A stretch of 49,379 bases of DNA from Candidatus Bathyarchaeota archaeon (GTDB lineage: Archaea > Thermoproteota > Bathyarchaeia > 40CM-2-53-6). The notes beneath the pieces were generated by a model. That model saw nothing but the letters and a program-made list of their open reading frames with translations, had not been told where the DNA came from and did no database searches. The position numbers and the translations under genes are program-made. Shown here piece by piece: positions 2,932 to 47,310 of the stretch. The stretch is from the NCBI GenBank assembly GCA_963833125.1, contig CAWHWX010000023.1, positions 1 through 49,379 on the forward strand. Reading direction: 5' to 3'. How positions within the stretch are numbered: the first letter of the stretch is position 1; each line of letters begins with the position of its first letter.

Positions 2932-2953
2932 CCTTCATGAGACTCTTGGAAAA

Positions 2954-3140
2954 GGTGACGTCAAGTTAACGTTTGTTCAGAGATTCTTCTTGTTTTCTGT
3001 GCGGAATTAAGGGGGGGTGGATCCACCCCTCGAGGGGTGGAGCCAAACGGTGCCAAACGAAGATACCTCTCGCCCCATTCTACGCCTCGATCCCCCCAAA
3101 CGAAGCAGTTTGCAGCAGCAACTAACAAGTTGACGTTACC
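2954..3140. mobile_element. 187-bp MITE-like non-autonomous element with IS1-like terminal inverted repeats
   Basis: The left end GGTGACGTCAAGTT and the reverse complement of the right end GGTAACGTCAACTT match 12/14. The element is flanked by direct repeat TGGAAAA at 2947-2953 and 3141-3147, encodes no transposase and lies between convergent genes. Confidence 0.7.
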
Positions 3141-3148
3141 TGGAAAAG

Positions 3149-4195
3149 TTAGTAGTCCGTTTCGAACTTGTCGAGCACGTCCAATTGGTCAAACCGCTTA
3201 TACTTCCAGACCAGCACCGAAACTACCCAAGACAGCAGAAAAATCAGAACGATCGCGAATCCAACCGTTTCGAAGTCAAGACCATTAAGCCCGCTCCAAA
3301 ATCCCCCGGTCAGATTCAGTTCGTTGGATAAGACCTGGAGCAACTCAACCGATCCAATGGCAAGGGCGACTAGAACGGAGATCACGGTTACGGTTAAGTT
3401 GTAGTAGATTTTGCGGATTGGATTAAGGAACGCCCAGCCATAGGCGGCGCGCATCGTTACACCGTCCGTAGTATCGATTAGAACCATGCCGCAGGTGAAC
3501 ATAAACGGCAGCACTAAAATCATCCAAATCGGAACAGAAGAGGACACACCTATCCCGACGCTGATCGCGATAAGTGCTATTTCCGTTGCAGTATCAAAGC
3601 CTAACCCAAACAGGACCCCGATGGGGTATATCTGCCAGGGACGATTGACGATCTTAAAGAGCGGGCGGAAATATCGGTTGAGGAACCCTCGTTTTTCCAG
3701 AATTGCCTCAAGTTGAACCTGGTTAAGCCTGCCTTGCTTCATTTCCTTGAAGAGGCGGTAGATGTTCACCACGATGACTATGTTCACGATTCCCATAAGC
3801 AGTAGGAAGGTGCCCGAAACCGTCGTGCCGATAATTGCCCCGCCACTTTCCAAATCCGGTATGTGACCGATAACGGTTCTAGTTGCAAGAATCAATGCGA
3901 CGATGAGCGCGACAACAATTGTCGAGTGTCCAAGCGAGAACCACAATCCTACAGTAAACGGCCGTTGATTATCCTGCATCAGCTTTCTAGTCGTATTATC
4001 GATCGCAGCAATATGATCCGCATCAACCCCATGCCGCAGACCGAACACATACGCAATTATGCCAAGGCCGGCGAGGAGCACCGATAGCTTACCAACGATG
4101 GCGGACGCTAGAAAACCAAAGATTGTGGCGAGAGCTATAATCGAATAAACAGTGACAATCTTCGCCTTCTCACTCCCTGAAAGCCCAACCGTCAA
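3149..4195 (-). CDS. HoxN/HupN/NixA-family nickel/cobalt permease (NiCoT)
   Basis: Signatures GLRHGVDADHIAAID, FSLGHSTIV and GLGFDTATE, with multiple TM helices. Probable TTG start at 4195 after AGGAGGAGG (the ORF track starts at 4234). Confidence 0.92.
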   Translation of the reverse strand: MTVGLSGSEKAKIVTVYSIIALATIFGFLASAIVGKLSVLLAGLGIIAYVFGLRHGVDADHIAAIDNTTRKLMQDNQRPFTVGLWFSLGHSTIVVALIVALILATRTVIGHIPDLESGGAIIGTTVSGTFLLLMGIVNIVIVVNIYRLFKEMKQGRLNQVQLEAILEKRGFLNRYFRPLFKIVNRPWQIYPIGVLFGLGFDTATEIALIAISVGIGVSSSVPIWMILVLPFMFTCGMVLIDTTDGVTMRAAYGWAFLNPIRKIYYNLTVTVISVLVALAIGSVELLQVLSNELNLTGGFWSGLNGLDFETVGFAIVLIFLLSWVVSVLVWKYKRFDQLDVLDKFETDY

Positions 4196-31366: not shown

Positions 31367-32566
31367 TTAATGCGCTGTTCCAGCCGACGCTTTCTCATCG
31401 ACGGGCCTGTTATCGTAGAATCTTGTAATTGTGAAAGGTTTTATCACGTCAGGGGCTTCGCCCGTGCGTATTAGTTCGGCGACATTGTTTCCCGCGGCTG
31501 GAGCTGTCTTGAAGCCGTATGTTCCCCAACCGCAATCAAGAATGAATCCTTTGACTTCTGGTGATTCGCACATGATCGGTGAGAAGTCTGGTGTGATGTC
31601 GCAGATCCCTGCCCAGCTTCTAATTATGTTCACGTTCGCCAAACAAGGCACGATTTCCACCACGGCGCTTGCCATCACCTCTAGGGTTGGGAGCGTGGTC
31701 CTGTAACTGTAGGACGTATACGGATCTATTTCCGCTCCCATGACAAATTCACCTCGGTCGGTCTGGTAGAAATATGCAGCCAAGTCACCTGACATGATCA
31801 CGCCCTCCATGATTGGTTTCAGAGGTTCACTGACGCAGGCTTGAAGCGGTACACTTATGATTGGTAACCTTACTCCAACCATTTCAGCGATTGTTGAACA
31901 CCAACCCGCCGTCGCATTCACAACATAATCACAACTGATCTCTTGACCCTTTCGCAGACACGCCAGTTACCTTACCGTCCTTCGTCCTAATCGCATCAAC
32001 TCTCGTGTGCGGGTGGATCTCGACGCCCATTCGGTCTGCGGCGCTTGAATAACCCCAAACTACCGGCGTCATGCCTGATGACGCCGCCACGCGGGTGGTA
32101 AAGAGCTCCAACTATTGGGAACCGTGGTTTGTCGCTCAAGATCAAGGATTGGGAAGAGTTCTCGAAGTCTATTCTTCCCAATCATCATGCTTTCGACGCC
32201 AACGGCTTTGTTCACTTCAGCCCTAAGCCGGAGACGTTCAAGCGAAAAGTCATTGTGCGCTAGAGTTGTCAAGCCAAACTGGTCGATGAGCATGTTGAAG
32301 TTTACTTCTTGTGAAAGCCGTTCCCAGCCTTTCAACGCCTCGTCATAGAAAGCTACGTTCTCTGGGGTGCGCTGGTTTGCCCTAATGATCTGAGTGTTGC
32401 GCCCGCTGTTACCCCCTCCTAGATAGGTTCGGTCAAGTACAGCCACATCGGTTATGCCGCGTTTGGCAAGGTGATAAGCCACTGAGAGACCATGAACGCC
32501 CGCACCAATAATCACTACGTGGTATCGGTTCTTCAGCGGGTTCTTTCTCCACATTTTTTCGGTCAA
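31367..32566 (-). CDS. soxB: Sarcosine oxidase beta-like FAD subunit (frameshifted)
   Basis: MWRKNPLKNRYHVVIIGAGVHGL, GGGNSGRNT, GGVIRHDA.VWGY, PLQACVSEPLKP and CGWGTYGFKTAP, spread over several ORF pieces. Confidence 0.85.
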
Positions 32567-32571
32567 TCAGA

Positions 32572-33295
32572 TCACCCCATTCTCCAGCCGAGCAACTTCA
32601 TCGCGGAAGAACCAACAGGAACGACACCTAACTCCATACCCGCGCCGAACACGGTGTCCCAGATGTACTCGCTGTACGCTCTCTCGAAATAGACCTGATA
32701 TCCTAGCACGTTCCCAAGGTCAAACCTCAGAACGATTGATGGAACGTGACGGATTGGGGAATACGTCGCTGAGAAATTGGGAAAAATCTCGGCATTAACG
32801 TTGAGTTCGGTTAGTTTCCGAAGAAGCGCTCTACTCTTTGGACCTAGAATGTAGGTTCCAGCAAGGACGGATGATACATCGATTGTTGTGACATGATTTG
32901 ACTCGGCGCTAAGTTGCTTGGATGCTGGTTCCTTGTCGGATGGTCCCGCTATCAGCATCGCTTCATCTTCACACAATGCGACGCAGACCGCCTCCTTTAG
33001 GGGTCCGGGTTCGTTAGTTAGCACGGTTCCTCTGGCTTCACGTTCGCTGCGATGGTAAAGCCGCGAGATAATTGTGGTAATGTGGGTGCTCTTCAGGTTG
33101 AGTTTGATCAGGTGGCTTATGTCGCCGACTCCAACGCTTCGTTCTACCGTCTCCTTCTCTACCATTGGATCGGTGAAGCGTTCAGCTAATTCCCATCCAA
33201 ACTGCGTTTTGAGTGAACTTCGCTCCGAGCGAGGCTTGTTTGTGGTGAAAGGGACTCAATCGTTTCGGTATCGTACGTTGATGTGATATAGTCAT
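32572..33295 (-). CDS. Sarcosine oxidase gamma-like / GcvT folate-binding-domain subunit (frameshift near 33200)
   Basis: ATG 33295 overlaps the alpha stop codon. MTISHQRTIPKRLSPFHHKQ, then GWELAERF, VGVGDISHL, ILGPKSRALLRKL and YSEYIWD...G. Confidence 0.75.
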
Positions 33296-36262
33296 TAGCT
33301 CTTCATCCTCCGCCCTTCGGGATCATAGAAGGCCCCCGAAACTATCTCAGCGTCCACGGGATGGCCATCGTGCACGATTGGTATCGTGTTGTGTTCCTTT
33401 GCAGTCTCCGCGGGGACCCACCCTATTCCCACGTATTTCTGGCGCGCATAACTATAGCCTGCAGTCGTAACGCGACCAACAGGTTTCTTGCCGGCCACGA
33501 TTACGTCCCCGTTGCTTACTGCGCCCGTTCCTTTCACTTCGAAGCCAATGATGTGGTGGCGAAGACCTTCACGCTGCGTTTTCAGAAGGTAGTGTTTTCC
33601 AACAAAATCTGGTTTCTCAAACTTTACGGCCCACGCAAGGTCTGTCTCCAATGCGTCGCTCGCTGCGTCCGTATCTAGCGTCGGCCAAATGTGCCGTTTA
33701 TCTAAGCTCAGCAGCCTCATTGCTTCGACTCCAACGGGTCGGATGCCGTAAGTCTCACCTTCCGACAGAAGTTTGTCCCACAGGTATTCTGCGTATTCTG
33801 CGGGAAAATGAATCTCCCATCCGACCTCCCCAACGAATCCGATTCTCAACATGAAGCCTGGGACTCCGGCGACGTTGGCTTTGGAGCACGACATGTAGGG
33901 GGCAGCCTCGTTGGAGAGGTCGATATCGACTAGGTGGGAAAGTAGTTCACGAGCCTTTGGGCCTGCGACATTTATCGCGGCCAGGCCAGACGTCATATTG
34001 GTTACGCTAACATCCAATGAGCCTGTGACCTGCCACCACTTCAACCAGTTCTCGACAAACTCAGTGTTACCTGTGGAGGAGGTGGCGAGATATTCATCCT
34101 CATCTAGACGGACGATGATGCCGTCATCCATGACTTTGCCCGTTTCACTGAGCAGCAACGCATACCTTGCTTTTCCAACTTTCAAATTCGAGTAGATGTG
34201 AGTGTAGACCATCTCCAGCAATTTGCCGGAGTCTGGGCCTTTGATTAGGAACCTTCCGAGCGTGCTGACATCGATTATTCCAACTCGTTCTCTGATCGCC
34301 CTATACTCCTGCTCCACGGAACCGTAAGACCTGGGCCGCTTCCACTCACCCATATCCATTAGCGCCGCGTTCAATGAGGTATGTTTGTGATGTAGAGCAG
34401 TTAGTTTTACGGGCCTGTGAGGGGGGCCGTTTAGGAGGCCCATCGCCAGTGGCTGGTAGGGTGGCCTTGACGTCGTCCTCTTCGTTTCGCTCAGCTTCAA
34501 TCCTATCTTTTCAGCGTGAATCGCGGTGCATGTTAAGCTGCAGAGTTTTCCTTGGCAGGGTCCCATCGTAAAGGTCGTGTAACGTTTCAATGTCTCGATA
34601 TCGTCAAAGCCCTCGTCCATCGCCTGCTTGAGGTCCTTGTCTACCAAGTCCTCGCAAATGCAGACGAACCTCTTCTCTTTCTCGCCAGGGGTTGTGTACA
34701 ATAAACCCGGATGGATGTTGGCCCTGTACTTCGCCGTGAGGGCATTTAATTCGGCTAACCACTGCGACCTCTTTTGTTCGAGTTCAGCGTTTGTCTTGAA
34801 CGAGACAGGCTCAGATCGTTTTTCTTCGTTTCCGAGGTCCGCTGCGGCCTGAAGCCCTGCCAGTCTTCCCTGTAAGATATTGATCTGTAGGTCGTGAATT
34901 GCGGTGACATCGCCGGCAGCATAGATCGTCGGCACCAGATTTGTCGGTGTTGATTCTCCTAACGCCTCGTCAAATGAGCTCTCGCAACCTGCTTGTAGTA
35001 GCAATGCGTTGGCTGGCTCAAATCCTGTTGACAATACAATCAAGTCGCAGGACACGTTCTTCAATGAATCAGGAAGGAGGTCGCCTTTCTGGTTAATCTT
35101 AGCGAGCACTGCGGCCTCGACCGCCCGTTTTCCCTTCGCTTCCAGCAATGTGTAGCCGTCGAGAAGCTCGGCGCCTTCCTTGCTCGCCCTTGCTTTGAGA
35201 GCATCATCCATAACGTTACCATTGGGAGATGCAATTGCGGATATTTTCACTCCGGCGTCCAGTAGGTCAGTTATGATTTCGGAGCCGTATTTGTTGTTTG
35301 TCACAACAAGTGCATTTCCGCCTGGCGTTATTCTTTGTAGATTGATCAGGCGTTGGGCTCCTTCCCTCAAGAAGATGCCAGGTAAGTCGTTGTTAGTGAA
35401 TGCGAAGGGTCTCTCGAAGCATCCGGTGCAGACGATTATTTTCTTAGCCCTAACTCTGATGAGCCTCTTACCTTGCGAGATCCCTACTAGGTTGCCTTCG
35501 TAAATACCGAAGCATGTAGCATTACTCAGTATCTCGATGTTGGGGGCTGATGACTGTGGAATAAGTTTCTTGGCAACTTCGAACCCTGCGACGCCGGAAA
35601 ATTCTGAACTGTCACAGGAACTAACTTTGTATCTTAGCCGACCGCCAAGCTCAGGCTGGTCGTCGACCAGCAGTATCTGAAATCCGGATTTAGAGGCTCT
35701 CCGCGGCAGCGCTTAGGCCGGCTGGACCTCCGCCTATGATTGCAATGTCAACATGCCTGTACTCGTCCTCGTATTCGTTTTCGTTTCGTTGCAGGTTCGG
35801 GTTGACCTTGCCGTACCCAGCTGCTCTTCGGATGACCTTGCGTACGATGGGCCAGAGCCATTTGGGATGAATGAATTTCTTGTAGTAGAATCCTACGGGC
35901 AGCAGGAAACTGAACTTGTCGATTATGGAGCCGAGATCGTGATCGAGTGAAGGCCAAGCGTTTTGCTGTTTGACCTCCATACCATCCGTTGCCAATACCG
36001 TACAGGATTTCACATTGGGTTGGCCATTGACTTCCATGAAACAATTGGGACATCGCCCGGCCACGCAAAATAATCCTCGAGGCCTATGATACTTGAAGCT
36101 TCGACCGAAGATGCTCCTGCCTTCCAAGAGCAGGGCTGATGCAACTGTGTCGCCCTCGTAACACTGGACCTTTCTGCCGTTGTAGTTGAGCGTGATAGAT
36201 TTTGATCGGTTGATTTGTTCCCCAGGTTTCTGAGGTAGCCGAGTTGCTTTCATGTTTTCCAT
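33295..36262 (-). CDS. soxA: Sarcosine oxidase alpha-like subunit with [2Fe-2S], Rossmann, BFD-like and GcvT domains (one frameshift near 35700)
   Basis: GRSFKYHRPRG, GGGPAGL, NNDLPGI, IYAAGD, LKRYTTFTMGPCQGK, RTTSRPPY, IDVSTLG and GFVGEVGWEI. I read the frame as open from 35700 to 33295. Confidence 0.88.
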
Positions 36263-36537
36263 TCCTTTTCTTTGTCGTCGTCAGGGAGAAACGTCTCCAG
36301 CACGGTGTTATCGCTCGTATTACGGCGTACCAGAAACCATCTTTTACATCCGAACCTGTGGTAGCACCATTCCTTCTGGACTCCGTGAATGTTCTTTCGT
36401 CCGTATGCGTAATTGTACCAATCTTGGTCGGATGCATTAACTGAGGGTCGCCTCAATGCCTCGCCGCCGAAAAGGAATTCATACGCGCTTCTTTCGCCGC
36501 AGTTGGGGCATTTGATTATGAGAGACAAGTGACTCAC
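36250..36537 (-). CDS. soxD: Sarcosine oxidase delta-like Zn subunit
   Basis: IKCPNCGER..EF.FGGE, W...Y.RKN..G...EW.H..GC.RWF...RNT. Confidence 0.88.
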   Translation of the reverse strand: MSHLSLIIKCPNCGERSAYEFLFGGEALRRPSVNASDQDWYNYAYGRKNIHGVQKEWCYHRFGCKRWFLVRRNTSDNTVLETFLPDDDKEKEWKT

Positions 36538-36780
36538 TCATTCAGAGACCTACGAAGCGCCGTATTCTGCTCTGATCTAGCTTCGTGGAACAAGGCCTCT
36601 GTTGTTCCTGACTGCTTCCGGATATAGCATTTCTGCTCGTTCAGGAGTATCCCCCTTGAAGATTGTAGCTTCCTCGCAAGCGTAGATCTTATCCGTACGC
36701 TTATTCAGTGGTGGTGGAAGAGGCACTGACGTGCGTCAAACGAAATTATCTCATCGGTTACAGTGGAGTTGTGATTCGAC

Positions 36781-37224
36781 TTGGGAATGAACTTTGAGGG
36801 AACCTTCGAAGTAAAAGCACCTAGGGATAGGGTTTGGGACTTCGTTATCGACCCAAACAAGATTGGCAAATGCCTACCGGACTTGAAAAGTTTGCAGGTT
36901 GAAGCTGACAATAAATTCACGGCGGTCGCCCGGGTGGGGATCGGATTCATGAAAGGCGATTTCAAATTTCAGCTGGCAATCGTGGAACAAAACCCACCTT
37001 CACATGCTCGGCTGAAAGGAACTGGGACCGGAGTCGGCAGTAGCATGAGCATGGATACTGCGATAGACCTAGCAGACGCTGGGACAGGCACGAAACTTAC
37101 GTACAAAGCAGATGTGCAGATCGGCGGAACACTTGCTTCAGTTGGTCAAAGGGTCATCGGCGGAACTATTGAGAAAACAATTGGCGAAGTCTTCAGCTGC
37201 GTGAAGAAGCAAGTGGAAGTTTAG
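36781..37224 (+). CDS. CoxG/SRPBCC-family protein
   Basis: FEGTFEVKAPRDRVWDF..DP..IGKCLP, VGIG, and YKADVQIGGTLASVGQRVI. Confidence 0.88.
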   Translation: MGMNFEGTFEVKAPRDRVWDFVIDPNKIGKCLPDLKSLQVEADNKFTAVARVGIGFMKGDFKFQLAIVEQNPPSHARLKGTGTGVGSSMSMDTAIDLADAGTGTKLTYKADVQIGGTLASVGQRVIGGTIEKTIGEVFSCVKKQVEV

Positions 37225-37258
37225 ACGACTTCAGGGTTCGGCTTTCATTCGATGGTAG

Positions 37259-39707
<2,449 letters not shown>

Positions 39708-39807
39708 CTCTCATCATCCAAAGGGACGTTTGCATGCAGCTGGCTGAAGTAATTCTGCATTGCTGTCGTACCAACGTTTCTTGGGTTTTGAATGAATGGT
39801 ATGAGGG

Positions 39808-40779
39808 CTAGCCGGCTGTGACGAAATATTGTTTCAGTTTTCCGCCCTCTAAGTCCGCAATTGCGCCCATAAGAGTTCCCTCCTCGTAGACGCTGCCTGG
39901 GTTGATGCAGACCGTTTTGCCAATCTTCGCGATTCCTTTGGATTCATGAATGTGCCCATGAAGGCCGAGAAGAGGTTGGACTTTCTCGATCGCTTCCCTC
40001 ACAGCCACACTTCCAACGGCGCTAGTTATTCTGCCGCCTGCCTTCACGTCCAGGTTCGCAGTTAGGGCGGGTGCATCGTCGAGACCTGATTTGGAGGGTG
40101 GGTCATGAAAGTTGAATATGCTCTTGCCGGGGTTCTTCAGCTGATTTGTCATTGCTCCGATCTTCTTCCCTAGCTCTTCCTCAGAACATTCCCGATAGGT
40201 TTTCCAAGGGGTCGGTGTTGACCAACCGGTGCTCAACATTTCGTAGTCTCCCCCAATTTCAAATATCTTCCCTTCGGCGTCTATGACTTTTGTCGATTGT
40301 TGGATTAATGCGTCGATGTCGAACATGTCGTCATTTCCGGGGCAAACGAAGCACTGAGTGTCTGAATTTTTCAGTTTGCTGTCCGCATAATTCATCCACA
40401 TGCTGACTCTTTCGGCCATTAATTTGTTGAAGGTTTCATTGCCCCAAGCAGTTAATCTATCTGGATCCTTGTGGAGGTCGTTGTAATAATCTCGCTCAGC
40501 GCGAATCGGATAGTATCCTTTGTCTGAGATTTTCTTCTCTAGCTTCGCTGTTTCTTCCTCGTTCTTTAGGACCAGATGGTTATCCTGGAAGTCAGCAGTG
40601 TAGGTGTGATTTTTTTCGGCGATTATTGGAATTAAGGCCTTGCCAGTCATATCCCCACCTAGGACTAGCAGGCTGGCCTGATAAAATTCGGAAGCGGCAA
40701 TGAATTTCTTCCAGCATATATCGGACCCATGAACGTCTGTTGCAAAGAAAATTCTGGGCAGGAGCGCCCACCTGCTCAA
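39808..40779 (-). CDS. Icc-related metallophosphoesterase
   Basis: TDVHG, GGDMTG, PGNDD, FHDPP, LHGHIHES and NPGS motifs. Confidence 0.9.
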   Translation of the reverse strand: MSRWALLPRIFFATDVHGSDICWKKFIAASEFYQASLLVLGGDMTGKALIPIIAEKNHTYTADFQDNHLVLKNEEETAKLEKKISDKGYYPIRAERDYYNDLHKDPDRLTAWGNETFNKLMAERVSMWMNYADSKLKNSDTQCFVCPGNDDMFDIDALIQQSTKVIDAEGKIFEIGGDYEMLSTGWSTPTPWKTYRECSEEELGKKIGAMTNQLKNPGKSIFNFHDPPSKSGLDDAPALTANLDVKAGGRITSAVGSVAVREAIEKVQPLLGLHGHIHESKGIAKIGKTVCINPGSVYEEGTLMGAIADLEGGKLKQYFVTAG

Positions 40780-40808
40780 GGGCGTTAGTATTGGATTGGT
40801 TGAAGCGT

Positions 40809-42452
40809 TTACTCTACTGGAATTTGTTGGTATATCTTGCTCATGTCGAAGCCTTGTTTCTTTCTGTAGGCTTTGAACCCGAAGTATAGTACAATTGCGA
40901 TTACGTAGAGGCTTACCATCATATACACCGAATATTGATTGTTAACTCCGTAGAGGGAGTTGGAGCCCCACTCGTAAGTTAACCATCCCATGAAGAATGC
41001 CGTTACGACTCCGGCGATGGTTATGACCGGAATTCCGCCCACTTTGTACTTTGCGATGGGGGATGATTCGTACAGGTCTTTCCTTCTGTAGGGTAAAACG
41101 GCTGCGGTAATTGCGGTGCCCAGGTACATTATTGCAATCACTAAGACCGCGTCTAAAGTGAAGGTTGAGAATGGTGTGCCTCCGATGCTAACGAAAGCGT
41201 AAAGGTAACTGAATATGGCCGTGGGAATTGCCATGGCAATTATCGCGTTGATAGGCGACCTTAGTCTCGCATTAACATCAGCAAATCTGGCGGGGAATAT
41301 TCTGTCGAAGGAAGCAGCGAACATAACACGTGTGGATGTCATGAAGAGGGTGCCCGACCAGCCCCAGTAGAAGCAGCTCAAGGTGAGCAGAAGGAATAGT
41401 TCTACTAGCACATTGTTCGTGAGAATTCCAGCGAATAAACCTGGGCTTGGGAAGATTGGAAACGGCAACGCCGGGGTTGAAGGGTTGTACGCGAAAAGTG
41501 TTCCCCAATAGACATAGTTGGCGGAATTGTAAAAGTTCCAACCAAATGCATTCGCGAAGAGGATGAAACCAACGATAGCGAGAATGGAGGTGAACACAAG
41601 TGAAATTGTTAGAGCCTTAAGATTGCGTTTGAAATCGTTCGAGCCTCGGACCTCGCCGTACAATGTTGCGCCCCATACGGGGTAAAGGTTGAAGAATACG
41701 ATGAACGGGACCAGCCCGAGGCTTGCGCTAAGGTTCCAATCCGTTAATCCTGCTAATCCTGAAAAACCACCCCCCGTAGCGATCGTTTGCATTGTTGTGT
41801 AACTGTCACCCGAGGCACCAAAAATCTGATTCGTCCAAGAATTAAACGCGGACTGAAATGTGGGCTGAGAGGAAGCTGCGAGAATAACATAGGTAACAAT
41901 GAGACCAAGCATGCCGATGTGGAAGCACCATTTCTGGATTCGGGCATAACGTTTCATTCCCAGCGATATGAATATCGAGACAATTATTATCGTCAAAATC
42001 GATGATGCGAATACGCCGGTTGAACTTGACCACCAGAGAGCTGCAGGGACGTTCCCTAATACTGCCGCGATTGGCGTAAACACCAGAATACTGAGTATGA
42101 CGCCGTAGATCGGCCCCCAGAGCCAGAGGATAAACACATACCCAGTAAAGGAAAGTATGAACCCGATACTGCCAGACAAGACACGACTTTGCCAAACATA
42201 GTCGCCACCTGCCCTCGGCATAACGGCGATGAGCAACGTGTAAGCTAGAATCTCGAAGAATATGAAGATCCCACTAACCACTATCGCGGTAATCTGGTTT
42301 CCACCCGGAAGGAAGGCGCCGTATGTAAAGGCGAACCAACCAAGTGAAACGACATTGATTGAAAGTGCTGAATAAACGAATGAATCGTAGATGCTCCATG
42401 CGCGCACTAACCCGGTCGCATCTCTTAGGAAAAGCTTCTTTTGCTCAGTCAA
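40809..42452 (-). CDS. APC-family amino acid/amine permease
   Basis: FLRDATGLVR, MPRAGGDYVW.SR, YGEVR and RVMFAASFDR, with about 12 or more TM helices. Confidence 0.9.
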   Translation of the reverse strand: MTEQKKLFLRDATGLVRAWSIYDSFVYSALSINVVSLGWFAFTYGAFLPGGNQITAIVVSGIFIFFEILAYTLLIAVMPRAGGDYVWQSRVLSGSIGFILSFTGYVFILWLWGPIYGVILSILVFTPIAAVLGNVPAALWWSSSTGVFASSILTIIIVSIFISLGMKRYARIQKWCFHIGMLGLIVTYVILAASSQPTFQSAFNSWTNQIFGASGDSYTTMQTIATGGGFSGLAGLTDWNLSASLGLVPFIVFFNLYPVWGATLYGEVRGSNDFKRNLKALTISLVFTSILAIVGFILFANAFGWNFYNSANYVYWGTLFAYNPSTPALPFPIFPSPGLFAGILTNNVLVELFLLLTLSCFYWGWSGTLFMTSTRVMFAASFDRIFPARFADVNARLRSPINAIIAMAIPTAIFSYLYAFVSIGGTPFSTFTLDAVLVIAIMYLGTAITAAVLPYRRKDLYESSPIAKYKVGGIPVITIAGVVTAFFMGWLTYEWGSNSLYGVNNQYSVYMMVSLYVIAIVLYFGFKAYRKKQGFDMSKIYQQIPVE

Positions 42453-42578
42453 AACTAACCAATTGAGAGGGCTCTTAAGTTGTTTTTAATACTTTGCACA
42501 GGCCAAGAATTCCACGCCCACGTCGAATTAGAATAATTGCGAGGAACTCAGGGCGGCCGTCCCCTGGTTAATAAACCC

Positions 42579-43601
42579 CTAAACCGTGAGGACGATTCTT
42601 ACAGGGTTATCCTGTTTCGAATCAAGCATCTGAAAGCCCCTGTTAACCTCTTCTAGTTTCAGTTTGTGGGTTATAGATTTTGATAAGTCCACTTTCTTGA
42701 GGGCTACTAGTTCAAGGAGCTTTCTCAAGTCATCGCTCGTGTGGTCGGATGAACTCCGTATTTGTGCTTCTAGGAATCTGAAGTCTGCTTCAGGATTGAA
42801 AGTCAAATCCTGAAAGCACATACCGATCGCAACGGCCTTGCCGCCTCTCGACAGGCTTCGAATTGAATCTTTCAGAGTCTTCGCTAATCCAATAAATTCG
42901 AACGCTTCATCTGCGCCACCCCATAGCTCCTTTGCCTTTGCTACGAAATCCTCCTTAGTTGGGTTGACTACGTAATCGGCACCTAGTTCTTTTGCGAGTT
43001 TCAGTTTGCTATCCATGATATCCACGGCCATAATCTGGCCTGCGCCTTGCATTCTTGCGAATTGGATCCCATGCAGCCCAACTCCCCCTAACCCCACAAT
43101 AACGACATGATCCCCTATCCCGATGTCGCCCTGCCCTATTCCATGAAACGCGGTTACGACCCCACAGGAGATTATGGCGCCCTCCTCGAAGCTGACGTTG
43201 TCGGGCAGCGGGATTGCGTTCTTCGCGGGAACGGCGTCATATTCCTGATAGGTTCCTTCTCTCTGGTAACCGATATATTCCAAGTTCGTGCAGAGGTTCT
43301 CGTGTCCGCTGCGGCAAAATCTGCACATACCACAAGTGACGTCATAATCCAACAATACTCGTTGGCCCGGCTTTATCCCCTTGACATTCGAACCAACCTT
43401 CTCCACAACGCCAGCGCCTTCATGCCCCAAGGTTCGCGGGATGACCCCACTCGTGTCACGGCCTTTCCACACGTGGATCTCGGAACCACAAATACCAGCC
43501 GCTTTGATTCGAACGAGAACGTCGTTGTCGCCAATCGTTGGAACAGGAACTTGCTCAAGTCGCAGAGGCTTGTTTGCTTCGTAGAACCTGGCCGCTAGCA
43601 T
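42579..43601 (-). CDS. Zinc-dependent alcohol dehydrogenase (MDR family)
   Basis: GICGSE.H, LGHEGAG, CGMCRFC...ENLC structural Zn and GLGGVG. Confidence 0.93.
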   Translation of the reverse strand: MLAARFYEANKPLRLEQVPVPTIGDNDVLVRIKAAGICGSEIHVWKGRDTSGVIPRTLGHEGAGVVEKVGSNVKGIKPGQRVLLDYDVTCGMCRFCRSGHENLCTNLEYIGYQREGTYQEYDAVPAKNAIPLPDNVSFEEGAIISCGVVTAFHGIGQGDIGIGDHVVIVGLGGVGLHGIQFARMQGAGQIMAVDIMDSKLKLAKELGADYVVNPTKEDFVAKAKELWGGADEAFEFIGLAKTLKDSIRSLSRGGKAVAIGMCFQDLTFNPEADFRFLEAQIRSSSDHTSDDLRKLLELVALKKVDLSKSITHKLKLEEVNRGFQMLDSKQDNPVRIVLTV

Positions 43602-43753
43602 GGTTGATGAGGGCGCAAGATTCGTATTAATGGTTTGTGAAGAATGATCGATTCGTTTGCCAAGTTAACCGAAGAATGTTCTCTCGGAGGATTTATGAGG
43701 GTGAGCCACAGAATTAAATAGAGAAATCATACATCGCTACGCAAGAGCGTTTA

Positions 43754-44992
43754 GTGCCTATGCAGTCAAAGAGCGGAAAGTTTGCTCCAACAATCTTTCT
43801 CTATCCAAGAATTCGCAAGACTCCGTATTATGAGGCTCATAAGAAGGCCGGAGTCAAGTCGTACAGCGTTTACAATCACATGTACCACCCGCGTTACTAC
43901 GGTGACATGTACAAAGAATACGAGAAAGTTGTGAGCACCGTTACGCTTTGGGACGTGTCGGTTGAACGCCAAGTAGAAATTACCGGCCCAGACGCGTTCA
44001 AGTTCACAAATTACCTCACCCCAAGGGACTTGACCAAGGTAAAGATTGGCCAGTGTAGGTATGTGGCAATCTGCACCGAAGACGGAGGAATGATCAACGA
44101 TCCGGTGCTGCTCCGACTCGGTGAGAACGAGTTCTGGCTCTCGGTTAGCGACTCTGACGTTCTGCTCTGGGCGAAAGGAGTTGCTGTCAATTCAGGAATG
44201 AACGTGAAGATTCACGAACCCGATGTATCACCGGTTCAGATTCAGGGACCGAAGTCGCCGTGGGTTGTGAAGGAACTAGTCGGGGACAAGGTGTTGGACC
44301 TTGGATATTACACCTGCATGCCCGCTAAAGTCAAGGGCATGGACGTAATCGTGAGCCGAACGGGCTTCACCGCCGAGCTAGGATACGAAATATTCCTGCG
44401 CAACAGCACCGTTGGACGAAACGCCGTCAACCTCTGGGAGGCAATACTCGAAGCCGGAAAACCCTACGGCATCCAGGTAACTGGACCAACGCACATAAAG
44501 GCCCTGGAGGCGGGAATATTGGATTACGGTTGCGACATGGATCTGAACACCAACCCATTCGAAGTGGGCTTGGATTATCTCGTCGATGCGAACAAGCAGG
44601 CGGACTACATTGGCAAGACCGCTTTGAAGCAAATCAAGGTGGAAGGAGTCAAGCGCAAGCTAGTGGGTTTGGACATTGGCGGAGCGCCCACATATGAATG
44701 GAATTGGGACACCGGCGTCGAGAACCCACCTGGGTGGGATACCGGCGACCGATGGCCAGTAACACAGAAGGGCAAGAAGGCGGGTTTTCTGACCAAAGCT
44801 TACTTCTCGCCAAAGTTGAAGAAAAACATAGGCCGAGCAATGGTCAGCCTCGAATACTCCAAAGAAGGCACAGAACTAACTCTCGAAACACCAGCCGGAA
44901 CAAGGACGGCAAAAGTCGTCTCGTTCTACTTCACCGACCCGAAGAAGGATATAGCGAAAGCCAACGTAAGAGCAATGGTACTCGCAAAGTAA
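43754..44992 (+). CDS. GcvT-family THF-dependent methyltransferase, DmdA-like subfamily
   Basis: RIRKTPY, YSVYNHM, LWDVSVERQVEITGPDA, TPRDL, GGMINDPVLL, WLSVSDSDVLLW and SRTGFTAELGYEI. These are DmdA-type motifs rather than the FDVSHMG motif of true GcvT. Confidence 0.85.
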   Translation: MPMQSKSGKFAPTIFLYPRIRKTPYYEAHKKAGVKSYSVYNHMYHPRYYGDMYKEYEKVVSTVTLWDVSVERQVEITGPDAFKFTNYLTPRDLTKVKIGQCRYVAICTEDGGMINDPVLLRLGENEFWLSVSDSDVLLWAKGVAVNSGMNVKIHEPDVSPVQIQGPKSPWVVKELVGDKVLDLGYYTCMPAKVKGMDVIVSRTGFTAELGYEIFLRNSTVGRNAVNLWEAILEAGKPYGIQVTGPTHIKALEAGILDYGCDMDLNTNPFEVGLDYLVDANKQADYIGKTALKQIKVEGVKRKLVGLDIGGAPTYEWNWDTGVENPPGWDTGDRWPVTQKGKKAGFLTKAYFSPKLKKNIGRAMVSLEYSKEGTELTLETPAGTRTAKVVSFYFTDPKKDIAKANVRAMVLAK

Positions 44993-45046
44993 CCTAGCCC
45001 CCTCCAAAGTTAAGCCGGAGTACCTTCGACCGCTAAGGATTGAGGA

Positions 45047-45902
45047 CTAACTCAGTCCTCTCAGCTCTTCAAGTAAACCTGTGACGATATTTAGGTCTGG
45101 ATCGGCCCAGGGGTAAATGTAGAAACCGGCCGCCTTCTTCCAAAGCGAGCGATAGACCTCCCTTACAATCTGAAGACCTTCTTCGACACCTTTTGCTGCG
45201 ACTCTCAACTTCACGGTTGGGGGGATCTTTACGCCGAGTCTCTGTTCCAGGAAAGTGATTGATTTCACGCTTCTCGGCACGAGCAATCCGATTAAGCAGG
45301 GAAGATTTTCGTTTGCTGACTCAAGAGCTTCAATTGATGTGAGCACTTGCTCGGAATGGAAGACCGGTTGCGTGATGGCGAGATCTGCTCCAGCTTCCCG
45401 CTTCTCTTTCATTGTTGAGATTAGCTTCGGAATGTCGTTGGAGGTAGGGTCGCTTCCCACTGCAATGCAGAATTGCTGCCCGCCGTCCTGGGATTTTTGT
45501 TTTCGCACCCACCGTATCAACTCACCCGAGGTTTTGAACTCGTAACGATTCGGGTAGGGTGGATCGTTTGGGTCCCCATAAAGCGTAAGTAGGTTATCGA
45601 CCCCGCCCCGCTTTAGATTGTTAAGAATTTCTCCGTCGTCACGAGGGTGATCTCGACAGATAAGAGACGCCACCACATCCACCTCCGTCCGCTGGACGAC
45701 CCTGATCGCCGATTCGAAGCAGATTTGTTCCGCAGTCTTTGCTCGGATCATCTGGGTCAGATGCATTCTTCAGTGCGGTGAGGCGGATTGCATCAACATA
45801 GGGTTTCACTTTTTCGACATGGTTCAGTAGATTGGGATCGTCGGGCTTGAACTCGACGACCAAAAGGGGCTTCCGGTTTCGCAGTTTATCGGTGAGTTTC
45901 AA
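45047..45902 (-). CDS. metF: Methylenetetrahydrofolate reductase-family protein (frameshift near 45755)
   Basis: LVVEFKP, SLICRD, NLLTLYGDP, ELIRWVR, FCIAVG and KREAGADLAITQPVF. Confidence 0.78.
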
Positions 45903-45930
45903 ATCAATACGCTCTGTAGCAGCTTTCTAT

Positions 45931-47153
45931 CTAGAACAATCCCGCCAACCGGATCTTCTCCCACAGGCTTACGTTCTGCTTCATGCCAGATGCCATTTCC
46001 ATTGCTAACATCATTGACTTTTGATTTTCTTGCATTTTACGTAGGCTTCTATCTCTGAACCATCCGACAATTGGGTTGCTTGTATTCATCATCATCGCCG
46101 TGAGCTCTGCCATGCGTCGCAGCGATTCCGTTTGACGCCTCCTTGCCACTTCGTAACTCTTCAGGGTCCTTGCTGAGAAGTCGGATTTAGAGAAGCATAC
46201 ATCGAGCACATCGAGCAGAGTGTTTACGTCGGTTAGGGTTAGGCTTCCCCCTTGCCCAAGGCTTGGCTCTATGGAATGAGCGGCATCTCCGATCAAGGCT
46301 ACGTTATCAGCAACCCAAGAATCCACTCGGACGTCTTGAGGGATCATGTATAGGAAGTCGTCCCATGACAACGCTGGCATCTAGCGCTCCTTTGAGCTCG
46401 GGGGCTAATGTAGTGATGTCCGTTTTGAATTGCTCAAGCCCCTTGGCCTTTACAGTTTCGAATGATCCCGCTGGTAGGTAGTAGAACAGGTATTGTCCAT
46501 GCGGTAACGGGAAACTGCCCAGCATCTTTCCCTTTGCCAAGTAGTGGCAAGCCTCGTCGCGTGAACAATCAGCCGCCTCGCCCGTGACCGTGACGAGGTA
46601 GCTTGCCTTCGATTGTGATGAATTCGCTTGGATTCCCGCCGCCTGTCGAACTTTGGACTTTCCGCCATCCGCGCCAATCACGACTTTCGCCTTAAGCTCT
46701 TGCTTCGTCCCATCGATAGTTGCTTGCACTCCGCTTATCTGACCGCTTTCTGCGGAGGAAGGTGTCGAATGAGGCGCCATCGAATATCTTGACGTGCTTG
46801 TCCTCAGCCCGTTTGCGAAGAATGATTTCGAATTCGTGTGGAAGGAAGGTTAGCACGTAATTCGGTTTGGTGTTCAGGAGGTGGTAGTCGTAGGCTACAA
46901 GCAGTTCCCCTGAATTCTTAACGTACTTCACTGTGCGAAGCTTGCGTCCTATCCCTTCAATATCACTTAGCAGGTGAAGTTTTTCGAGAACTTGAAGCCC
47001 GTTCGGCGCTAGACTCATACCCCGCTTGACTGGCATCGTTCCTTTTCGAGCCTCCAACAATGCCACACTATGGCCACCATGGCCCAGGCCGATGGCTAGA
47101 GATAGGCCAGCTATGCCCCCTCCAACGATCACGACGTCGAATTTCCCGTCCAC
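45931..47153 (-). CDS. FAD-dependent monooxygenase (UbiH/PHBH-like), frameshifted
   Basis: IVGGGIAGL, VIGADGGKSKVR and ALIGDAAHSIEPSLGQG across three ORFs. Confidence 0.88.
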
Positions 47154-47310
47154 ACTAGTGCCCCCGGCTGGGCAAGCTCTGCGTGGTAGCTGTAGGTATT
47201 ATTTGTGCCGCAGGCTGCAACCGCAATTCGACACCGGTATTTGCGATTTTTGCAGGACTGTCGATATTCATCTCGTTGTTCGTGCACAGATAAGACAGCA
47301 GCAGACGACG

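Follow-up and report, generated by a model that had tools for sequence, protein, structure and literature searches.

The window analysed here is the whole contig CAWHWX010000023.1 (49,379 nucleotides) of a Candidatus Bathyarchaeota archaeon, and it carries a gene for a DmdA-like protein of the GcvT family, P0001, in a cluster that also encodes a short MetF (methylene-tetrahydrofolate reductase family), a fused dimethylglycine oxidase and a sarcosine oxidase (Table 1). With slightly more confidence than doubt, we regard P0001 as a corrinoid-independent glycine betaine:tetrahydrofolate (THF) methyltransferase of the DmdA/GcvT fold, lying within an island for the conversion of betaine to glycine. 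In the proposed pathway, P0001 would move the first methyl group of glycine betaine to N5 of THF, yielding dimethylglycine (DMG) and 5-methyl-THF, and the short MetF would convert the latter to 5,10-methylene-THF; the fused DMG oxidase and then the SoxBDAG-type sarcosine oxidase would release the remaining two methyl groups as methylene-THF, each on its own GcvT domain, to leave glycine, and an APC-superfamily permease may import the substrate. The fold, the family placement, the conserved neighbourhood, the lack of matches to known alternative enzymes and the purifying selection are results of the analysis, from which we infer what P0001 acts on and forms, in which direction MetF runs and what the transporter does; methyl-THF is the suggested product of P0001, since the linkage to MetF is specific and the oxidases of the cluster already make methylene-THF. 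A preliminary description of this DNA had put forward a candidate of this kind, and the family tests, the neighbourhoods of relatives and the known demethylase families not found now speak for it, which in our judgement brings it just above an even chance.

The open reading frame (ORF) at 43754-44992 on the forward strand is intact over 412 codons, and translation probably starts at the ATG at position 43760 (410 residues), because all ten close homologues begin at the corresponding methionine. P0001 matches the Pfam families GCV_T (155.5 bits) and GCV_T_C (46.8 bits), and it aligns with the DmdA of Pelagibacter ubique (3tfh_A; E-value 2.6e-69, 237.5 bits, ~50% identity over residues 18-309), including the motifs YNHM, LWDV..ERQVE, NDPV and SDSDVLLW for which the preliminary description had called it DmdA-type. 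The AlphaFold2 model, built on a 40-sequence alignment, reached a mean predicted local distance difference test score (pLDDT) of 91.7 and a predicted TM score (pTM) of 0.90, with low confidence for residues 1-6 and for an insertion at 317-331. It has the three-domain GcvT-type fold closest to 3TFH, and its best match among solved structures is indeed 3tfh_A, ahead of T-proteins (E-value 1.4e-45, TMq 0.85, TMt 0.95, root-mean-square deviation 2.1 Å). The best NCBIfam model was likewise that of DmdA (NF009133), at 348.7 bits and thus under its cut-off of 410 bits. P0001 also stayed under the GcvT cut-offs (186.1 versus 300 bits for NF001567 and 167.8 versus 235.85 bits for TIGR00528) and under those of LigM/DesA, where only partial matches were obtained (48.0 versus 580 and 70.3 versus 800 bits). 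A HMMER search of 1.84 billion cluster representatives returned 561 proteins at E ≤ 1e-30, and of the 79 listed representatives with a length close to that of the full protein (340-520 residues), 47 were scanned with the DmdA model: seven reached the cut-off, these being 35-46% identical to P0001, and the nearest representatives (P0002-P0010, 47-55% identical) scored 298-391 bits. P0001 is thus a GcvT-fold protein closest to DmdA that is not a DmdA by any membership test run.

The phylogeny suggested in the preliminary description was run as three trees (a quick one of 86 rows, a careful one of 53 rows and a quick one of 63 rows in which the lineage of P0001 was subdivided), LigM/DesA being compared by profile scores. 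All three placed P0001 outside the clade that holds every DmdA passing the cut-off, with an approximate likelihood ratio test support (SH-aLRT) of 99 for the 86-row tree and 98 for the 63-row tree, and ultrafast bootstrap/SH-aLRT supports of 93/96 and 88/86 for the 53-row tree. In the 63-row tree, the lineage of P0001 (support 100) stands in a three-way split with clade ii, which is mainly actinobacterial (support 95), and the DmdA-holding clade, and clade i, which includes Pelagibacteraceae, branches outside this split. The residues also differ: P. ubique DmdA reads S-G-W-S-K-Q-G-G where P0001 reads T-G-F-T-A-E-L-G (with Phe205 and Glu208), and P0001 and its neighbours share the pattern T-G-[FYW]-[TS]-[GA]-E-[VL]-G, the same as in GcvT and in dimethylglycine dehydrogenase (DMGDH). 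The tryptophan of the DmdA motif is named as a contact specific for dimethylsulfoniopropionate (DMSP) in the account of PMC7487153. Since this position is W, Y or F even among the DmdAs passing the cut-off, the firmer difference is Glu208, compared to Gln, Arg or Lys in DmdAs; in addition, P0001 carries a YHPR motif where DmdAs read LLP. Seven positions (K22, H45, R47, E55, Q162, Y186 and E208) are invariant in 31 context-linked sequences and different in the DmdAs passing the cut-off, P0001 being itself one of these 31, so that its match shows consistency but does not test the set independently; H247 and R/K249 come close to invariance in the context-linked sequences. From the alignment, these invariant residues are candidates for a pocket that would hold the carboxylate and the trimethylammonium group.

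The argument for the substrate draws on gene neighbourhoods, those of bacterial relatives included. One genome per GTDB species was scanned for the pattern, and the best 80 of the 604 stretches obtained were retained (L018-L097). These were searched with the cluster proteins of the window and with MetF, FolD, Fhs and BCCT sequences from bacteria; Pfam was run on 84 neighbouring ORFs from 13 loci, and a GC3-weighted gene caller was used for the loci of high GC content. Note that tblastn with the MetF of the window found no bacterial MetF in these loci, and that Pfam on the neighbouring ORFs and the bacterial MetF queries did. Among the best 80 stretches, the closest named carriers are Allosalinactinospora lopnorensis and a metagenome-assembled genome (MAG) of Gaiellaceae (54% identity), followed by an alphaproteobacterial MAG (53%), Arthrobacter sp. 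VKM Ac-2550 (51%), a Rubrobacteraceae MAG (50%) and a Dehalococcoidia MAG (44%); one further archaeal carrier, and no more, was obtained, a Halosegnis MAG (39%), and the matches in named Bathyarchaeia are ordinary GcvT (32%). Culturable carriers include Allosalinactinospora lopnorensis CA15-2 (L024) and Marinobacter manganoxydans MnI7-9 (L063). Under fixed thresholds, and within fetched loci several of which are short, clade ii (9 loci) showed MetF in 6, a DMG-oxidase type in 4, sox genes in 3 and at least one of the three in 7, and clade i (17 loci) showed them in 10, 7, 1 and 12, respectively. The corresponding figures were 2, 0, 0 and 2 (MetF only) for the 21 loci of the DmdA-holding clade and 1, 0, 0 and 1 for 30 loci of ordinary GcvT, and three loci outside the tree had none of the three neighbours. 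For clades i and ii combined, this amounts to any of the three in 19/26, MetF in 16/26 and a DMG-oxidase-type or sox gene in 13/26, figures that describe a pattern and not a statistical test, as the loci of relatives are not independent (five clade i loci are from Pelagibacteraceae).

In Actinomycetota, Chloroflexota, and Alpha- and Gammaproteobacteria, relatives repeatedly have MetF and DMG or sarcosine oxidase genes as immediate neighbours, in one case together with a betaine-type BCCT transporter. As an example, the Rubrobacteraceae locus L022 reads BCCT transporter, DMG oxidase, DmdA-like gene, MetF, FTCD_C, GcvT, DAO oxidase and IclR; L020 consists of DMG oxidase, DmdA-like gene and MetF; and in Allosalinactinospora (L024), MetF and a MetV-like gene are divergent from the DmdA-like gene, which is followed by DMG oxidase, soxB and soxA. 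L028 combines DMG oxidase and the DmdA-like gene with formate-THF ligase and FolD, L038 has DgcAB-like genes, the DmdA-like gene, MetF and soxBDA, and L023 shows the order of the window, namely metallophosphoesterase, permease (45% identical), DMG oxidase and DmdA-like gene, with MetF and sox genes nearby. In these six operons, among the steps that lead from betaine to glycine and further to C1 oxidation, the one from betaine to dimethylglycine is alone in having no gene, and the DmdA-like protein is the only enzyme left without a step. The monooxygenase found beside metF in the window was not detected beside any of the 80 loci. In two Actinomycetota MAGs, two DmdA-like genes stand in tandem (L058:10001-13762 and L059:10001-12419), followed in L058 by a MetV-like gene and MetF.

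The families of known betaine demethylases were not found in the archaeal genome itself: MttB/MtgB (PF06253), Rieske oxygenases of the GbcA type (PF00848) and the BHMT/MetH type (PF02574) each gave 0 matches, with a positive control that responded, in an assembly that is 87.8% complete, so that these absences are provisional. Allosalinactinospora lacks PF06253 and PF00848 as well, and its single MetH-sized gene carries PF02574. According to a 2025 study, there are three recognised first demethylations of betaine, by the Rieske oxygenase GbcAB, by BHMT and by the cobalamin-dependent MtgBCD (PMC12478193); that article mentions neither ‘aminomethyltransferase’ nor ‘DmdA’, and it describes a MetF paralogue as the most induced protein of Ruegeria on betaine and as the proposed oxidiser of the methyl-THF formed by MtgBCD. 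In SAR11, the DmdA-like SAR11_1265, an ‘aminomethyltransferase of unknown substrate’, lies beside the metF SAR11_1264, a pairing left unexplained in the account of PMC3160333, whose authors guessed at a demethylation of methylmercaptopropionate (MMPA), and the two genes are described as co-regulated (PMC5069961). Inactivity on DMSP is reported for the DmdA-like protein of the SAR92 strain H455 (PMC10746254), as are carriers of dmdA homologues that make no methanethiol (PMC6309047). Our full-text literature search turned up neither a characterised betaine:THF methyltransferase of the GcvT family nor any account of the degradation of betaine in Bathyarchaeia.

Sequence comparison indicates that the cluster is a horizontally acquired, integrase-flanked island whose nearest relatives outside the lineage are bacterial. 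The DmdA-like gene was not found in 40 relatives, where the best matches are at GcvT level (28-36% identity), nor in 400 other genomes sampled from the phylum (E ≤ 1e-60), and searching the 40 relatives for the DMG oxidase gave no match either. The 18 kb from soxB to the integrase are an insertion relative to kin, because the homology with another contig of the same bin (C18) stops before soxB and a tyrosine recombinase lies at, and marks, the right edge; scanning the window found no tRNA at the island edge. The P0001 gene is not an archaeal invention but a part of an island acquired from outside. A collection of 5.8 billion proteins contained seven clusters at 87-90% and ten at 69-80% identity to P0001, and a metagenome scan gave 23 loci of the archaeal lineage at 72-96% identity, many of them on short contigs, in which metF is adjacent in 15/23, the monooxygenase lies beside metF in 10/23 and the DMG oxidase is present in 5/23, always in the orientation of the window. 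When the P0001 gene was compared with six homologues of the lineage, the ratio of nonsynonymous to synonymous substitution rates (dN/dS) was 0.035-0.07, and in four further comparisons the synonymous sites were saturated; the gene is therefore maintained under strong purifying selection. Proteins 88-90% identical to P0001 (P0155, P0156 and cluster members) are labelled Candidatus Acidoferrales or Dormibacter-type bacteria in NCBI MAG records, on contigs of 3.8-15 kb; these labels are probably due to mis-binning of short archaeal contigs, since the flanks here are archaeal, the alternative being a very recent transfer between domains.

Table 1. Genes of the cluster around P0001 and of the right end of the window, in order of position
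Feature	Coordinates	Strand	Basis
soxB, two pieces	31367..32566	-	Pfam GCV_T/DAO scan of soxB and soxG
soxG	32572..33165	-	Pfam GCV_T/DAO scan of soxB and soxG
soxA, two pieces	33295..36262	-	Pfam Fer2_4, SO_alpha_A3, GCV_T; NCBIfam soxA 440.5 bits, under cut-off
soxD	36250..36537	-	Pfam SoxD
CoxG/SRPBCC-family protein	36781..37224	+	Pfam COXG 123.4 bits; conserved in L113, L114
Fused flavin adenine dinucleotide (FAD) oxidoreductase + FAO_M + GcvT (DMG oxidase/dehydrogenase architecture)	37259..39707	-	Pfam DAO, FAO_M, GCV_T, GCV_T_C on successive pieces
Metallophosphoesterase-like protein, paired with permease	39808..40779	-	Weak Pfam Metallophos_2
APC-superfamily permease	40809..42452	-	Pfam AA_permease_2 41.6 bits
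Zn-dependent alcohol-dehydrogenase-family protein	42579..43601	-	Pfam ADH_N + ADH_zinc_N; divergent from P0001 gene
DmdA-like GcvT-family protein P0001	43754..44992	+	Pfam GCV_T + GCV_T_C, NCBIfam DmdA, 3tfh_A
Short MetF (methylene-THF reductase family)	45047..45902	-	Pfam MTHFR 76.4 bits; two frames in window
FAD-dependent monooxygenase, UbiH/aromatic-hydroxylase-like	45931..47153	-	Pfam FAD_binding_3 on all three pieces; three frames
Tyrosine recombinase, 5' part, cut by contig end	48939..49379	-	86% nucleotide identity to C22:6-271

The preliminary description was also right that dimethylglycine and sarcosine enzymes lie nearby. Upstream of the P0001 gene, the order is alcohol dehydrogenase, permease, metallophosphoesterase, DMG oxidase, coxG (on the forward strand), soxD, soxA, soxG and soxB, the sox genes being of the heterotetrameric sarcosine-oxidase type and 83-89% identical in the related contig L113. 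Its observation that DMSP-pathway genes are not adjacent agrees with our Pfam scan of 31.3-49.4 kb, in which no family typical of dmdB, dmdC or dmdD was found, that is, none of the acyl-CoA ligase, dehydrogenase or hydratase genes of the MMPA-CoA pathway; likewise, no GcvH or GcvP family occurs among 19 ORFs scanned between 33 and 49 kb. The adjacent MetF stood as a member of the family, 54 bases away, and its frame proved to be split by one base; furthermore, it does not form an operon with the P0001 gene, as the two are convergent, tail to tail, and are thus neighbours but not one transcript. The window MetF is only 25-35% identical to the MetF genes of relatives, and the genome also has a second, native MetF (C28), a FolD-like gene (C19) and other GcvT-like loci on C30 and C4. 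The alcohol dehydrogenase has threonine 3-dehydrogenase as its best NCBIfam match (203.8 bits, under cut-off), and it is present in L109, L114 and L116 and absent between the genes in L108 and L110. The permease is 84-92% identical in L113, L114 and L116 and 45% identical to the permease at the same position in the Actinomycetota locus L023, and homologues of the metallophosphoesterase, 43-44% identical, occur in L018 and L023. Both have paralogues in their own genome (contigs C4, C14, C16, C24, C30, C33, C18 and C1), at least eight for the metallophosphoesterase and many more for the permease, with several adjacent pairs of the two, for example on C24, C30, C16 and C33, and a pair 43-45% identical in the L023 cluster of an Actinomycetota MAG. 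The monooxygenase reaches no specific NCBIfam family. The recombinase fragment alone has no Pfam match, and the full ORF on C22 (305 residues) matches Phage_integrase at 74 bits. The archaeal group of this genome is usually described as anaerobic; the window carries an oxygen-dependent set at 31367-47153, consisting of DMG oxidase, sarcosine oxidase and flavin monooxygenase.

Several genes of the island (metF, monooxygenase, DMG oxidase, soxA and soxB) read in at least two frames in the window, the DMG oxidase in at least four pieces, and ORFs broken across reading frames are frequent throughout the assembly. Another contig of the bin, C22, matches window positions 45313-47182 at 92.5% identity. 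The alignment, of 1870 columns, contains 141 substitutions and exactly three indels; at every indel the window has a single additional base (near 45740, 46378 and 46752), and each coincides with one of the three frameshifts; the break in metF is one extra A near 45740, and those in the monooxygenase lie near 46378 and 46752. On C22, the monooxygenase is one ORF of 406 residues (126.7 bits) and metF is open up to the contig end. A short-read contig from the soil metagenome run X1 is also without the base at 46378, and the X1 pieces do not span 45740; this run yielded 11 short pieces, among which 8 reached ≥95% identity, and the runs X2 and X3, with only pieces below 95% and long unlike ends, were not used. 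Moreover, the genes are intact in related metagenome contigs, with 284-286 residues for metF (L106, L113), 405 for the monooxygenase and 812 for the DMG oxidase (L113). By comparison of these copies, the frameshifts are most likely assembly errors. C22 (L105; 1060-7133) also holds, between integrase and monooxygenase, 7.3 kb that the window lacks, with two adenylate/guanylate-cyclase-like ORFs and a PLD-like/TrmB-like protein, and the right part of the island therefore differs between the two copies.

The window is one of the 39 contigs of a 3.07-Mb assembly, which is 7% contaminated and whose rRNA operon is archaeal. Positions 1-31333 are colinear with C18:157361-183595 (84-95% identical), and this homology ends ~30 bases before soxB. 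The C18 copy is far more broken, ORFs of at least 350 residues covering 0% of it versus 28% of the copy in the window; it could reflect two strains binned together or a decayed duplicate. A chimeric contig was considered and rejected, given that the left 31 kb match C18 at 88-95% identity, that a left-flank peptidase is 67-74% identical in genomes of the same genus (a left-flank protein is only 36-37% identical in two named Bathyarchaeia genomes), that the GC content is even across the island junction and that the sister contig C22 has the same metF, monooxygenase and integrase. The flanks of related metagenome contigs resemble other contigs of the genome at 65-80% nucleotide identity, in part through a multi-copy family, which makes this weak evidence. 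A stretch of ~190 bases at 2946-3149, beside a NicO nickel-transporter gene, has more than 25 copies on at least 13 contigs (83-93% identity); it resembles a short dispersed repeat and may be a miniature mobile element.

A number of points weigh against betaine as the substrate of P0001. The case is drawn wholly from gene neighbourhood, and to the non-independence of the bacterial loci and the incompleteness of the archaeal genome, both mentioned above, should be added that, of four bacterial carrier genomes checked, three encode Rieske oxygenases and three contain additional genes with a homocysteine-methyltransferase domain, so that a redundant known betaine route is possible in those carriers. 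In chemical terms, a trialkylammonium group gives up a methyl group much less readily than does the sulfonium of DMSP. To our knowledge, all three known demethylations of betaine depend on either a strong nucleophile or oxygen (Zn-thiolate, Co(I) or a Rieske oxygenase), and we know of no precedent for a direct attack by N5 of THF. In the trees, P0001 forms a third lineage, inside neither of the two bacterial clades (i and ii) that are linked to this context. Within its own lineage, the DMG oxidase is found in the mentioned minority of contigs, many of which are short, and the best-kept companion besides metF is the aromatic-hydroxylase-like flavoprotein, for which no role in the degradation of betaine is obvious. 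In the closest relative (L106, 92%), the trio of DmdA-like gene, metF and monooxygenase occurs without a DMG oxidase in 14 kb; this trio stands directly after a cobalamin-synthesis operon (CbiX/C, CbiD, several TP_methylases and CbiG; L106:232-6829) and near a short MetE-type (Meth_synt_2) gene of 344 residues (L106:11426-12460), a context that hints at a link with methionine or methyl-group metabolism.

One alternative is that P0001 forms methyl-THF from another donor. This could be an onium or N-methyl compound (proline betaine, carnitine-type betaines, dimethylsulfonioacetate or methylamines), or else an aryl methyl ether, in the manner of LigM/DesA and with ring hydroxylation by the monooxygenase. 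The trio with metF and monooxygenase, the most constant arrangement in the archaeal lineage and the one found in L106, would suit such a donor, and the SAR11 DmdA-like gene beside metF was suggested to act on another substrate in the account of PMC3160333. Nevertheless, we find this rather unlikely, as the LigM/DesA models match at a small part of their cut-offs, the monooxygenase was not detected beside any of the 80 loci, L022 contains a BCCT transporter, and the recurring neighbours in four bacterial phyla are DMG and sarcosine oxidases, a substrate chain that starts from betaine alone. It is quite improbable, in our opinion, that P0001 instead captures the aminomethyl or iminium product of a separate amine oxidase and makes methylene-THF. 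Its fold and THF-binding residues are common to GcvT, DMGDH and SoxA, and free-standing GcvT-like genes do occur beside monomeric DAO-type oxidases, both in L022 (12774-15325) and, as described in PMC3160333, for SAR11_1303/1304. However, the DMG oxidase and SoxA of the cluster carry their own GcvT domains, L022 has its GcvT/DAO pair in addition to the DmdA-like gene, the linkage to MetF is specific to the DmdA-like clades (1/30 for ordinary GcvT loci), and the nearest characterised relative transfers a methyl group.

A genuine but divergent DMSP demethylase, giving MMPA and 5-methyl-THF, would agree with the best NCBIfam model, the best solved structure and the ~50% identity to the P. ubique enzyme, and Phe205 is not decisive given the variation at the tryptophan position. 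Against this stand the score below the DmdA cut-off, the position outside the clade of all seven passing sequences, Glu208 and the YHPR motif, and a cluster without the ligase, dehydrogenase and hydratase genes, which leave it very improbable to us. Moreover, near-identical short contigs come from a soil metagenome run and the nearest relatives from soil-type MAGs, and DMSP is not expected as a major substrate in soil. DmdA-like proteins inactive on DMSP are documented as well (PMC10746254). Finally, the frameshifts in metF, monooxygenase, DMG oxidase, soxA and soxB might be taken to mean that the island is decaying and that the P0001 gene has no current function in this organism. We regard this as barely credible: all three comparable frameshifts are single extra bases missing from C22, one of them being also missing from the short-read contig, the homologous genes are intact in L106 and L113, frameshifts are common across the assembly, and the low dN/dS speaks for selection.

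In soils and seas, few osmolytes and sources of methyl groups are as abundant as glycine betaine. If P0001 and its relatives act on it as proposed, they would be single-protein enzymes requiring only folate; they would account for the first demethylation in many genomes in which DMG and sarcosine oxidases occur without a known betaine demethylase, and would remove the presumed cobalamin requirement. The novelty would consist of a new substrate within the DmdA/GcvT methyltransferases and a fourth route of betaine demethylation, here by horizontal transfer, and the result would be a soil archaeal lineage with a complete, oxygen-dependent betaine-to-glycine pathway taken up from bacteria, its first step being the predicted one. 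A broader reading, which to us falls a little short of an even chance, is that DmdA-like clades associated with MetF and DMG/sarcosine oxidases represent a widespread fourth first demethylation of betaine, free of corrinoid and of oxygen, spread over SAR11-type marine bacteria, soil Actinomycetota, Chloroflexota and, by transfer, soil archaea, and that they are the stock of DmdA itself. Such an origin is suggested because true DmdAs nest in a derived clade and the betaine-context clades lie nearer to the base of the tree. In that case, metagenomic ‘dmdA-like’ reads, often counted as DMSP demethylation potential, would have to be read differently, and the climate-relevant DMSP demethylase would appear to have evolved from a betaine enzyme.

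When compared to known systems, P0001 shares Pfam domains and fold with GcvT, and it differs from it by the low identity of 28-36% to GcvT-level matches in relatives and by a cluster without a gene for an H- or P-protein. Like LigM/DesA, it belongs to the GcvT family and would make 5-methyl-THF without corrinoid, although it is very distant from them (fold TM 0.66); in Sphingobium, MetF also stands beside GcvT-family O-demethylases. With MtgB/MtgBCD and MetF2, it would have in common the proposed net reaction, followed by the oxidation of methyl-THF by a dedicated MetF paralogue, as described in PMC12478193. In contrast, MtgBCD has an unrelated fold (MttB superfamily plus corrinoid protein) and depends on cobalamin, and the MttB family was not found in this genome. 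A DmdA-like gene beside MetF, as for SAR11_1265, occurs in five Pelagibacteraceae loci (L054, L056, L057, L060 and L084), three of them with a DMGDH-type gene within a few kb; these are taken as the SAR11_1265 type by description only, and they differ from P0001 in being only 36-40% identical and in belonging to clade i. The closest known system remains DmdA (EC 2.1.1.269, P. ubique, PDB 3TFH; NF009133), with which P0001 shares the three-domain GcvT fold, the motifs YNHM, WDV..ERQVE, NDPV and DSDV and presumably the type of reaction, from an onium methyl group to N5 of THF. Compared to it, P0001 has Glu208, Tyr44-His45-x-Arg47, Gln162 and His247 instead of the DmdA residues and a 15-residue insertion of low confidence at 317-331, and its neighbours are not the genes of the MMPA-CoA pathway but the DMG and sarcosine oxidases and MetF.

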